In this document: positions 21,942 through 31,000 of the stretch, one piece after another
Layout of the letters: the number at the start of each line of letters is the position of its first letter
Position numbering within the stretch: the first letter of the stretch is position 1
NCBI RefSeq assembly: GCF_964204645.1
Contig: NC_134028.1
Span: forward strand, 2,666,001 to 2,730,000
DNA from: Tubulanus polymorphus
Taxonomy: Eukaryota; Animalia; Nemertea
DNA: 64,000 nucleotides
Reading direction: 5' to 3'
Program-made: the position numbers and the translations under genes
The notes under the pieces: model-generated
Told to the model about the DNA's origin: nothing
Database searches by the model: none
What the model saw: only the letters and a program-made list of their open reading frames with translations

Positions 21942-22055
21942 ATGGATGGCGAATTGAATGTGATCACAAACGGTCGCGATGGATACATGACTATGATTGG
22001 ACGTGATGAGCAGAAAAATGCTACGGTATTGTTTGATGAAAATGCAATTCACAAG
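21942..22055 (+). CDS. Rab26/37 alternative first coding exon 1B (MDGELN...DENAIHK)
   Basis: ATG plus 38 codons ending AAG|gtgagc, phase 0; joins exon 2B to give IHK-TILVGD, parallel to ACK-VMLIGD in isoform A. Confidence 0.75.
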
Positions 22056-25000
22056 GTGAGCCATCGATATCGAATGCGTGTGCTAGAAAATCACTTCTTT
22101 GCAAGTGTAGATCATGTAGATAAGTCATAAATGCCCCTAAAAACACGAGTGTACATGGGCCAGAATCTCACTTAAAACAGTCACAAGATCAAAAGGTTTT
22201 TTTAAGGAAAGTTCATGATACTAAAACGTCACCCACTCGCTGATCCATCAACAGCGATGATCAAAGGAAATTTCATCATGGTTTTAGTATCGTACGGTCG
22301 ATTCAGGGTCGTCTGAACATCGCTCATTCCGATAAAGTTATGTTTAAAAGCTCGTCCATCCAGGCTTAGACAAGTGGAGACTCGTCGGATTCTGTCTGTA
22401 TACTCCATTAATTTAATTAGCATCATACATCGGTTGATTCATGGATCGAGACATCTCATCTCGAAATGCAGGTTTCGTATCGCGGCCGAAGGAAGTGGCG
22501 GCACACTTGAAACGAATTGAGATGAATTTGAGCACGTGGCTCTCGCGTGTGGAATACATTTTCTGGAAGGTTTAAATGGAAGGTTTTTTAGGTTCAAACG
22601 CCATGGATCATTCTTCCACTTTCAGGAATGTCGTATGTCGTTCGTTATGAAATGAAACGATGAATAGGGAGATCTTTAGCCATACGAACAATTACCTCGT
22701 GGTTATGTGCACGGCATGATGCTGGTACACGGCAAAAGCTGCTTTGAATCGTGTTTTGCGTCTGGTTGACGCTTCAAAACGCCAGCTTTTAAAAATGCAT
22801 GGCAATCTTGGCGATTTTTTATGGGAACGTACAGTCATGAACCATGATGTTGAAATAGAACTAATTCCAATGCGACCAGGAGCACAACGTTTAGCATCCA
22901 ATAGCTAATCTTTTTGTTGTAATTTCTTCTGGCAATTACTCCGAAGTTTGCAGTATATTTCTAAAAGGTTTTCAGAGCCAGTGATCTTTATGAAGGGACC
23001 CATACACTTCCGAGAAATAGCCTTCTTTGAATGGAAACGTTTGGGGACGGTTAATCTGTAGAGCCGTATCACTGATGCATATGTGTGGAATTTCTTTCTA
23101 TTTTCCTCTGATTCTATAGTAAAGGTCGTGGTATGAGATACTCGTATAAAGTTACCCTATTCGACGTTAAAGCTTGTGAAGTGTAAGGTACGGTTTTAAG
23201 TTTACGTTTTTCAAGTGTAGATAGCACCAACCTGCTCTAACATACCCGTAATGAGCAAAATTGTCTGACCGAATGCGTGATATCGCATATAGGGTTGGGC
23301 AAAGTGAAGTGCTATTATCATTGGGACTTTGTGTAAATGTCACCGAAAGGACCCTAAATCAACGTTTCACCAGAGGAAATGAATATACACGAAGGCTCAA
23401 AGTTCAATAAACATTGGTATATCATCAGAATGAACACCTTTTTGAATCAATGAATCCAAACTAAGTCATTACTTGCGCGTTTCATTTGCCTCCGTGACAA
23501 ATATTAGATTGCTTACTAATGAACGAATCGGGATCGAGACGTAGCCAATGTTTTTTTTTATGATATTAGTTTAGGCAGAAATCTGAGCTTCTGAAGTATT
23601 TCAATTTCCAGACACTTGTAGAATTTCCTAGCCGTCCCCGTTATTAATTTTATCGGTGATGGAGAAGACGCCGAGTGCGCAGTGAAAATGAGAGACATAT
23701 CAGGCTTTATTATGTGACACAAGATGATAAGTTCACTCGGGCGTGGTTGGCGATAACAACGCAAATGGAATAAAAATGAAAATCATATCAACGATGAATT
23801 TATACGTTTGTTATTCTAAGTGTGGATTAGAAATGGTCACGTAAACTGTTGTTATGATTAATGTCACCTTGTGCTAGAACTCTTTAATTGATTCCACAAT
23901 TATGAGCATCACCTCCGACATAACATTGAGTATCAGAATGACCCAAGACGCTTTGATTATCACCAGTATCCATAATGGTATAGTTCATGCTCATTGTTTG
24001 ACATAATTTCTGTTGGACCTGGAACGGAAACCATGTTTCAAGAGTTTTCGAAATCTCCTGTGTCGAAGTACGCTATTCGTTCATGGCCAGCACTGACCTT
24101 AGCTATAGGAGAATATATGACAAAACTCTTATCAGGTTTTGGAGTTGGGGGATAATCGTTCGGTGCTTTCATCGCCTGAAATCAAAGAAATGGTGATTGA
24201 GCAGCAAAAGACGGTAAACCTAAATGAAGTTGATGAGCGCCTGCCACATGAGAAAACTATACAACGAAGCAAACGCTACCGGTAATGGTCGTTTTGGGAC
24301 TATTAGGAATTGAATAGTTTGCCGCCTGATTTTAAGGAGATTGAAGACTACTTCAGCGTCGCGCAGTTAGATGAAAATTCGCCAAAATCTCCATCAACAC
24401 CGCAGCAACTGTAGATCAAGAGCTCAACGATAGACTCGCGTACATCGTGCATCAGACTGTATAAAGTGAACGATGCAATAAAGGTTCTTTTCGGCGTCGG
24501 TGGCGACAAACAACCTGCCGGCCATCGCGGTTTGTATGTAGATGTATGCAAAGCTGACTTTACCAGATCGATACCAAAATCGATACATTTTACGTCATTT
24601 CCTCAATAGAGTATCGTGATGAATAATATCCGATACCATATCAGTGCTATAAAATTACTTCGTCCATTTCAAACAATCTCCTATTATTATGGATTGGCAT
24701 CTGACAACAATACGGTGTTGTTCTTCTGGTTGTTCTGGCACATGGTACTGCACTTTCGTTTAAAAATAACATCTACATTTACTCTTTTTAAATTGATATT
24801 TTGGCAAGATAGATAGATCTCGGATTCATTAACGATGTGGGGCTATTTCGTTCCGATTCATTTGTTCCTTTCACCATGTTACATGCCCCAAACGATGCAG
24901 TGACATCATTGCCGCAATACGTCGAATACGTTACAACGTCTGAGTTCCCTCGTCTTGATGTGTCATGTATAGAATGCATCTTTTCTGTAGTTACCAGGGC

Positions 25001-28000: not shown

Positions 28001-31000
28001 ATTTTACATGTAAAATGGAAATCAATTTAAATCGTCAGTCAGCGCTTCAAATCTGATGAACAACTCACGCGAATTGATATGTTGAATGATACAAAACAAT
28101 TCATATCCTTTTATCTGTAAAAAAAAAAGTTTTGAATATCAATTTGCTTCCTCCTCGCCGATAATGATGATGATTGAAACCCTGGATGAAGTTTCTCGTT
28201 AAGCTCAGCTCGGATTCGAACCCCAAATCCTGTTCTTAAAGCTGTTAACGTTTTAGAATGATAATTTTAAAACAATTCATGTTCGGGGCGGATTGGATAA
28301 GGCCTCCTGCGATCGGGATTGCTCACAGTTTAGAATGGCGATTTTTCGATCGACCGTTACTATTCTTGGGGAACAGAGCACTTGACCATCATGTAAACTG
28401 GGCCACGGAAGTGTTGCTGAGATTGGTACCAGTTTGACCAATATAAATTAGAATTCCTCGATGCGAAACATTCTTAATAGATTTAATGTTGACTTTAACG
28501 CGTTATTCCGATCATGGACGTATAAACTATTTCACACGTCCATGTTCCGATGAGGTACTGTCAGAGATTGCGCATCAAAATCAGATATTTCAGTTGTGTC
28601 AGAAAAAAATTCGTATAGAACAAATGTCTGTATCTTATAATTCGTATACGTGTCTATTTTCAGACGATACTTGTCGGAGATAGCGGCGTCGGGAAAACGT
28701 CTTTGCTTGTACAATTTGATCAGGGGAAATTTCATACGGGTTCGTTCTCGGCAACAGTCGGTATCGGATTCACGGTAAGACACGTCACATTTCGCCATAT
28801 ATATTTCACTAGTTTTTTGCACCTCAAAAAAACGCTGATGAATTCACAGCGAAGCTACGCATACGGAGACTTCAAAACGAGTAAGTATATAGTGTTTAAT
28901 AGTTACTAGTCGGTTGCCGGTCGTATCTATTGCTATGATGGAAAACGATGAGGTAAGTAAAGGACTTATTCAATGGATCCAATATCCAGTACTTTTCCTT
29001 GCCATACGATTAGTTCTCTAGGTTTCTTCGCCATTTTTCTTTTTTTGAAGGGTGGACGCTTGCTTGCGTCTGGATCTGAATCCGTCAAGCTTCTCGCGTG
29101 ATGCATCGACTTTATGTCCATGCATAATCTTATAATCTGTTTGATTTTATATAACTGTTAGCAATTGCATATCAATTTCCGTATTGCGAATCTAAACAAA
29201 TTACTATATCATTTTCACAGGTTGGATGATTATTCAGCAGTCATTTTACGAAATGAATAAGTCTTGAACATGCCATCAATTTGAAGCCGATGCTGTTTTC
29301 AGGGACAGATACTAAATAAAATTGACCTAGTAAAAGTGTTTTGGTGCGGCAAACGCTAATGCATTCATGCACTTGTTTATCAGCGAATGATTTTGGTCAA
29401 CGACTTTCCAAGTCATTCACTCCTAGTAACATCTCTATCTTACTGCATTTCGTTTTCGACGCTAAATTGCTATTTAATCAGCGTTGCCAATTTTGCGATC
29501 TATTTGATATCGAACTTCAAATATTTGTCTATTATTGACGCCGTTTCGCGAAGAGAATTTCATTGCACAACTTTCATGAATCTTCTCGCGTCGATCGATT
29601 ATTCTTTTACAAACAAAATTAATCCGAGATAACAAATTCTAGCCTCAACAAGTCCCAATCCGTGTCAACGAAACGGTGTATTATACAAACTAATATTTTC
29701 CAATATTTGGTGTCTAGAACGGCATAGTAACGCGGCGCAGAGAAGGATTACATTTTGTGGATTTTCCTTCCATCCATTAAACGTGTATATATTGAATATT
29801 TTTATAAAAAGTCATCAGCCGAATGAACTGTTGTTGTGTATCACACATTTCAAAGAAAAATATATACAACATTTTAAGATTTTCTAATACTGATATATAC
29901 ATAGTACATACATCGTTAAATATCCCTTCTAGCTTGGGATTTTTACCGAACGTTTTTGAGCCGTATTTGAGTAGCATATTTGTCTCCAACTGTCTAGCTA
30001 TTATTTCACGGTAGTGCTTTATCTAATGTCATTTCGCTGTTAGGATAATCCATTTGCAGTGCAATTACACGCAAGCCATTTCTGGTAAATCCTATTGTGT
30101 CAGCCAGGAAGATAAATCGGGCAACGATCTGTGCTCATTCCCTTTACGTGGGACTTGAAAAACAGGAAATGTTTGACGTGAAAATTTTCAGCGCATAGCA
30201 CTGATCTAAATTCCATTTCGCAACTGTACGCGAGAAAAATGGAAGAACCAAACGATGTTTAGTTTATAGATTTTACGTGTTTAATCAAAATATTACCATT
30301 ATTTGCGGGTGAATATTTAAAATGAATTTCTTCGAAACCTAAAGAATAGGCTACGTAGATTACCGTATTTCATAACGTACGTCTATTTCGATTTTAACAG
30401 TATATAACCTAACATTCTCTACTCGCACATAAATCATACAGATGAAAGAGAGATTTCGATTGATACCGTACTGTACAGTCGTTTGTATACGTAACCACTT
30501 GAGGGAATAATCTCATCAATATTCATTTTATTGTATATATCTCTCGTTTTGGGTGGAGTAATAGTTTGTTTTATCTGAAGTAGCGGTAACGTAGCGTTAG
30601 CAAGGATAAAGGATATTAATTTGTATATTTTTCTATGATAAATGTTACTCTTAAAGTCTTTTTATTGTAAATGCAGAATATAATTGGCTAGTTAATTTTG
30701 AGTTTAATTTAGATTTTTCGAAACTCGAGGGAAAATATTCTTGAGCGCGGTGTTGTGAACCAGTTATCATAGTGTTTACGGTTGTTTTCGCCGGCATTTG
30801 AGTCATTTACCAAAATCTACGATTGTCTTCTTTTATATACAGCGAAAGGAGAATGCACAATACATTTGAGAAAACCCCTAGTCCTCCTTGCGTACACTTT
30901 TAAGATGATTTCGAAATGCTAAACGACGAGCTGAAAACGAATATCTTTGATCTGAGGGAAAACGGTCAGGTCTAGCCTACCAACCATTGTATTCAATCTC

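Follow-up and report, generated by a model that had tools for sequence, protein, structure and literature searches.

A Rab gene with a duplicated front end

The window analysed here, 64,000 nucleotides (nt) of contig NC_134028.1 of the nemertean Tubulanus polymorphus, contains one Rab gene, on the + strand, in which the exon carrying the P-loop and switch I is present in two versions. Exon 2B (28664..28774) encodes beta1, the P-loop, alpha1 and switch I with the sequence ATVGIGFT, and is the orthologue of the exon used in the human RAB37 isoform of 216 amino acids (aa). Exon 2A (36131..36241) is the canonical P-loop/switch I exon and reads STVGIDFR at the same place. Both are 111 nt long, bordered by AG and GT and in phase 0 at either end, with 23 of 37 residues and 65 of 111 nt identical between them. 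The coding part of exon 1B (21942..22055), the probable first coding exon of the 2B isoform, comprises 38 codons from an ATG at 21942, ends in HK and has its donor after 22055 in phase 0. We consider it highly probable that the gene possesses a duplicated front end, with 1B and 2B upstream of 1A/1C and 2A, whose 2B matches the exon of the 216-aa human isoform, which likely has a promoter of its own and which would give a Rab predicted to cycle between GTP and GDP while showing its partners a different switch I face.

An earlier reading of this DNA, made without database searches and referred to here as the sequence-only reading, had placed 1B and 2B at these coordinates and had described ATVGIGFT and QFDQGKF in 2B in place of STVGIDFR and RFKDGAF in 2A; the exon sequences bear out both points. 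The sequencing runs labelled X1-X3 behave as DNA contigs, with no splice joints among them, and so do not bear on expression; run X1 may have been the source of the assembly. Exon 2B sits on a contiguous DNA contig of run X1, and no second copy of it was found in genome G000, where exon 6 has a single match at E<=0.001 (15 candidates scored in each search). Exon 6 is 100% identical to the corresponding part of the RefSeq 'Rab-37-like' protein of T. polymorphus (P0121). The closest relatives of the gene product are Rab26/37 proteins, and it possesses the G1-G5 motifs, a C-terminal Cys pair and a detectable Pfam Ras domain.

Exon 2B is shared by vertebrates, arthropods and spiralians

The sequence-only reading had proposed a nearly identical human RAB37 isoform and had named two observations that would speak against it, the lack of any vertebrate match and the grouping of 2B with 2A of the same species. 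The vertebrate match is present: compared by eye, the exon of human ENST00000402449 agrees with 2B at 35 of 37 residues, with HT here where the human exon has IP. Exon length and splice sites are the same as in the human pair (111 nt, phase 0/0, 37 aa), and 2B lies upstream of its partner exon in human too, with coding sequence starts at 74,729,256 and 74,740,768. With 2B as query, 763 of 792 candidate proteins matched at E<=0.001 (lowest value 2e-23), and the similarity is not a matter of chance. The 120 matches listed come from mammals, birds, amphibians, fishes, lamprey, hagfish, spiders, a centipede, insects and a barnacle; other searches added a chiton, gastropods, bivalves and a rotifer.

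A maximum-likelihood tree (56 rows, 37 columns) was computed from 29 segments of 2A type, 23 of 2B type and 4 outgroup segments; one intended Rab26 row had no full exon and was left out. All 23 2B rows, from vertebrates, arthropods and spiralians, form a single clade (100/100, present in 100% of 200 bootstrap trees) on a long stem of 1.41 changes per column. Within-species pairing of 2A with 2B occurs nowhere in the 56-row tree, and T. polymorphus 2B falls among its counterparts from other phyla and not beside its own 2A. At the residue level the window 2B is identical to that of the spider Argiope (37/37), and the window 2A to the 2A of Owenia, Ptychodera and three molluscs. The vertebrate match and the single 2B clade across phyla support the proposal of the sequence-only reading that the putative alternative-promoter architecture is older than the split between this invertebrate and vertebrates, a pre-vertebrate age already published for RAB37 (PMC8373072). 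The conserved function of its own which that reading ascribed to the isoform would rest on this conservation.

A search for 2B outside Bilateria covered the best 150 of 437 representatives; 10 were looked up and the 4 with species names (a rotifer, two bivalves and a fish) are all bilaterian, a sample too thin to date the origin of the exon. Among vertebrates, a switch II query fetched 42 Rab26-named records, none of which has a 2B-type segment, and RAB26 is absent from the supplement of PMC8373072. Vertebrates therefore appear to have retained 2B only in RAB37.

Several cyprinid-type fish Rab37 records, zebrafish included (P0172, P0174, P0147, P0190, P0205), are of 2B type only and may represent a gene copy in which 2B alone was retained; such a copy, if real, would be a ready model for 2B function.

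Exon 2B carries a fixed set of changes in and before switch I

To compare the two exon types we took segments from 376 of 378 stored proteins, dropping two unrelated tandem Rabs, and classed them by exon position 13; the rows are redundant, those of 2B type come from a search with 2B itself and the G2 Thr was a filter requirement. Position 35 is Asp in 251/251 2A segments and in 0/166 2B segments, where Gly (161), Ser (3), Ala (1) and Cys (1) are found. Position 37 is Arg in 251/251 2A segments versus Thr in 164/166 of 2B type. Together with R>Q, K>D and D>Q/T at positions 17, 19 and 20, these give a fixed set of changes in 2B: C>S, R>Q, K>D, D>Q, D>G and R>T. The P-loop core is kept, as are the aromatic Phe at position 23 (166/166; Rab7 Phe33) and the triad Phe at position 36 (165/166; Rab7 Phe45). 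A second sample, in which 129 of 132 further representatives could be parsed, gave Gly in 124, Ser in 1, Asp in 1 and truncated segments in 3.

Two kinds of variant 2B ending were seen. In hagfish (P0057) and lamprey (P0064) Ser replaces Gly, and the sand fly Lutzomyia (P0102) reads TVGIALT, in which the triad Phe is also lost. Position 35 of 2B is thus one that takes small residues.

The canonical Asp of the RabF1 motif, whose consensus we take, with the sequence-only reading, to be IGVDF, is present in 251/251 2A segments and replaced by Gly in the 2B isoform. Residues 2-36 of 2B match residues 12-45 of Rab7 chain 1vg0_B, placing Gly35 on Asp44 as judged from the range ends. In the accessible text of one review, Asp44 and Asp63 of Rab7 hydrogen-bond to REP-1 (PMC9141697); accessible parts of two further papers describe RabF1-4 as the surface for REP, GDI, GAPs and effectors (PMC5902227) and the G motifs (PMC5902221). 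Because D>G removes the equivalent of this REP-1 contact, it may weaken REP/GDI binding, a tentative prediction that we regard as somewhat doubtful on balance. An exon conserved at 35/37 residues across bilaterians, yet without the family-wide REP contact, would offer a cheap and direct test of the part that RabF1 plays in REP/GDI handling.

The 1B-2B cassette and the shared downstream exons

The canonical isoforms begin with the coding part of exon 1A (31323..31463). A third first coding exon, 1C (33846..33893), is short (16 codons) and is spliced to 2A; like the switch II exon pair described below, it goes beyond what the sequence-only reading had found. Downstream of 2A the isoforms have in common exon 3 (37393..37434; interswitch), exon 5 (45519..45571), exon 6 (46985..47107; NKxD), exon 7 (48444..48520; ETSAK) and the coding part of exon 8 (49865..49963), which encodes the hypervariable tail ending in CCS before the stop, a prenylation motif common to all isoforms. 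Switch II is encoded by either of two 67-nt exons, 4a (40594..40660; I/R type, RSITRAYYR) or 4b (44199..44265; V/H type, RSVTHAYYR, the type of vertebrate and arthropod Rab26/37). All of these exons lie on the + strand. Letter for letter, 1A-2A-3-4b followed by exons 5 to 8 is RefSeq isoform X1 (P0121), and the same chain with 4a is isoform X2 (P0241); 1C-2A-3-4b followed by exons 5 to 8 exactly matches isoform X3 (P0240). A tblastn search of the window with two full proteins found no exon duplicates other than 2A/2B and 4a/4b.

Across 9.4-28.7 kb the end of 1B is the sole in-frame HK-GT site, and in other species HK precedes 127/166 2B-type segments versus 1/251 of 2A type. On these two grounds we infer that 1B is likely the partner exon of 2B. 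The chains 1B-2B-3-4a and 1B-2B-3-4b, continued through exons 5 to 8, are open for 228 codons. The existence of separate first coding exons also suggests that a separate upstream promoter likely drives 1B-2B.

In two bivalves and a rotifer (P0407, P0400, P0427) the 1B+2B cassette is recorded as a separate protein of 89-103 aa, apparently a recurring gene-model error.

A second duplicated exon pair encodes switch II

Exons 4a and 4b are in the same phase, are identical at 55 of 67 nt and differ in their products by V>I and H>R. A transcript with both exons reaches a stop at codon 131 and one with neither at codon 118. The pair thus shows the features of mutually exclusive exons: homology, equal length, the same phase and a frame broken by both or neither; early stops may enforce exclusivity through decay. 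The RefSeq models X1 and X2 use one exon each (4b and 4a, respectively), as do gene models of 12 molluscs. Both types are annotated in 13 of 31 named spiralian species (1 nemertean, 1 chiton, 8 gastropods and 3 bivalves), and all four combinations of 2A/2B with 4a/4b in 5 of the 31. The R type alone is found in a cephalopod, Owenia, three other gastropods and Mytilus trossulus, four heteroconch bivalves possess a single V/H form only, and Sinanodonta has Lys at the R/H position. Switch II segments from other records (270) carry His in 262, Gln in 2 and Arg in 6. No R type was seen in the named vertebrate or arthropod records retrieved, although it may hide inside 90% clusters, few of which were opened.

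A hairpin was considered as a basis for the 4a/4b choice and found no support: the inverted repeat around 4a folds no better than shuffled sequences (z -1.24, 22/200), with z +0.72 for the 4b control. No paper on such a pair of switch II exons turned up for Rab26/37 in a literature search judged mostly by title and start of abstract and covering journals outside subscription. The 4a/4b pair is present in public gene models, is apparently undescribed and would be a second way of tuning the same surface in spiralians.

Weighing the alternatives

Several observations weigh against a 2B isoform that substitutes for the 2A form and differs at switch I. In 90 of the 120 proteins listed from the 2B search (spiders, insects, lamprey, fishes, birds and mammals), 2B runs straight into 2A. 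For T. polymorphus the RefSeq cluster consists of X1-X3 only, all of 2A type, and the 1B peptide occurs in 0 of 378 stored proteins. The public annotation of T. polymorphus thus seems to be without the 1B-2B form, weak evidence given that clusters were viewed rather than the annotation itself. The tree rests on 37 columns, with its bootstrap not fully settled and the 2A rows unresolved; one fish gene model (P0465) has Asp in its 2B-type exon; the Asp44 contact is taken from a review passage on Rab7 and not on Rab26/37; and the literature yielded no binding or biochemical measurements for any 2B isoform.

The 2B-to-2A models bear most directly on the main alternative, in which 2B is chiefly spliced onto 2A and the product is a canonical Rab extended at its N-terminus by an additional copy of the P-loop and switch I, with no substitution within the G domain. 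The length and phases of 2B would permit it, and 1B-2B-2A-3 and onward is open for 265 codons. The ranking of the 2B search, however, favours two-hit models, placing proteins with both 2B and 2A first, and 46 stored models of other species join 2B to exon 3. In the accessible part of the supplement of PMC8373072 the curated human transcript, ENST00000402449, is a substitution and carries a '1' in the Proteomics column. The human RAB37 transcripts in the accessible text of PMC9714508 range from 182 to 223 aa and differ between tissues, with no longer form among the long-read forms listed and the 2B form not told apart among them. We regard splicing onto 2A as the principal form as improbable; the 2B-to-2A models may imply a leaky switch or may be wrong. 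The retrieved RefSeq proteins of T. polymorphus, with no 2B isoform among them, would also fit a silent relic, in which 1B/2B persists in this species after its transcription was lost. A dead exon would have drifted, and 2B is instead residue for residue that of a spider, with canonical splice sites and an intact HK-GT end of 1B, which makes this reading very unlikely. Separate origins of 2B in the nemertean and vertebrate lineages, by convergence or lineage-specific duplication, found no supporting point; the single 2B clade on its long stem, and the exon borders, HK end of the first exon and upstream position of 2B shared with human, refute them at present sampling. Substitution of 2A by an anciently duplicated 2B is the reading that we prefer.

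The age of the 4a/4b pair is less clear-cut. Instead of one old spiralian event, nemerteans and molluscs could have duplicated the exon separately, or gene conversion could have acted on it. Exons 4a and 4b agree throughout their first 20 nt, and 11 of their 19 shared codons are identical versus 7.3 expected (p ~0.05), with 8 of 23 versus 7.1 for 2A/2B. The last residue of 4a is His in T. polymorphus but Asn in most mollusc forms, and gastropod 4b has Ile, leaving only R/H diagnostic there. Set against these points, the same R-versus-H alternative recurs in the nemertean, the chiton, the gastropods and the bivalves, the R type reaches a cephalopod and the annelid Owenia, and the intron flanks of 4a and 4b are dissimilar (16 and 27 of 200 shuffles score as well). 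A single old event is preferred, and separate duplication or conversion is the less likely reading.

Neighbouring genes and repeats

A Polycomb gene of CBX type has its last coding exon at 8376-9347 (-), with a match to Pfam CBX7_C (E 3.9e-12) and an AT-hook-like RRRPGRPPK; human CBX2/4/8 presumably lie on 17q25, as does RAB37. Exons of a probable MIF4G-domain gene lie at ~57000-58300 (-), with a Pfam MIF4G match (E 0.018) below the curated cut-off. Human MIF4GD is, we assume, near RAB37 on 17q25, and the MIF4G-RAB37 neighbourhood is a possible old linkage. At 2857-3297 and 4065-4337 (-) we observed an exon whose N-terminus resembles a signal anchor and which encodes an acidic stem, along with an open frame close by, with no Pfam match; the product is perhaps a type II membrane enzyme. 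Within the Rab gene, the intron between exons 1C and 2A contains ~1.1 kb of (CT)n and (CCCTCT)n (~34260-35320), a source of strong skew. Intron 3 contains a high-copy repeat element with inverted joints (~38400-38640), with very high contig depth and many loose ends in the runs labelled X1-X3.

A model for isoform choice

In the mechanism that we propose, promoter choice would select the cassette and 2B would be spliced over 1A, 1C and 2A to exon 3. The 2B product is predicted, from the contact residues it keeps, still to cycle nucleotide, and would have the same C-terminal tail and prenylation motif. Because these are common to both products, similar secretory membranes would probably be reached. 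Through its remodelled switch I/beta2 face the 2B product would probably recruit a different set of effectors or regulators, and weaker REP/GDI binding could be one consequence of the lost Asp44 contact. In spiralians a second, independent choice of exon 4a or 4b would vary two switch II residues beside the triad Tyr, and one gene could present four switch I x switch II surfaces. In a bolder version, the promoter would set switch I and splicing would set switch II (one version of it Rab39-like), and through these two independent choices a single spiralian gene would produce four Rab surfaces. Its 2B arm, kept from worms to humans, would act as a built-in 'REP/GDI-weak' Rab which, lacking the Asp44 contact, is prenylated, extracted and recycled unlike every canonical Rab. 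We consider this version speculative and rather improbable.

Comparison with known systems

Functional work on RAB37, in the accessible text of PMC12495445, PMC5943352 and PMC4773767, used T43N/Q89L, which by the human isoform sequences is the numbering of the 223-aa (2A) form; as a set these papers give ATG5, Munc13-4 and MADD as partners, and splicing is not mentioned in the accessible text of PMC4773767. A mutant library contains Rab37 Q82L (PMC9810446, accessible part), the numbering of the 216-aa (2B) form. These numberings indicate that laboratories apparently used different RAB37 isoforms. The accessible parts of PMC9813115, PMC3327705 and PMC3504004 do not address the exon pair, and a side-by-side comparison of RAB37 isoforms was not found within the literature coverage given above.

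The gene has the Pfam Ras domain and C-terminal CC motif in common with the secretory Rab group (Rab3/27/26/37). The mutually exclusive exons of Rab6A and Rab6A', in a different subfamily, are a precedent in which a duplicated exon changes few residues near switch II. Rab26 (PDB 2G6B) is the best PDB match for exons 2B and 4a and has Asp at the RabF1 position, unlike the Gly of 2B. Exon 4a is identical to the switch II of Rab39B (PDB 6S5F) at 19 of its first 20 residues. We ruled out that it belongs to a Rab39 gene: its position is within the Rab26/37 gene, it agrees with 4b in phase and ending, and RefSeq isoform X2 contains it.

The nearest known system is the human RAB37 tandem-exon substitution, event 171 of Martinez Gomez et al. 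(2021; PMC8373072), in which ENST00000402449 (216 aa) and ENST00000613645 (223 aa) differ by the same 37-aa pair with the same borders and order. In the accessible text of that paper RAB37 is one of 13 events with Drosophila orthologues and is dated to Bilateria, and the event is mapped on Rab26 (2G6B), where the differing residues form a surface patch likely allowing different interactions. Both the pre-vertebrate origin of the pair and its changed partner surface are thus already in print. The accessible section on the RAB37 event mentions neither spiralian RAB37 nor an Asp44/REP link. Here, by comparison, the pair lies in a single invertebrate Rab26/37 gene of a nemertean, together with 1C and 4a/4b. 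What we add is modest: an instance from a nemertean, the prediction on Asp44 and REP, and the switch II exon pair of spiralians. For the most part the finding confirms the published case, which it extends to nemerteans, molluscs and a rotifer.

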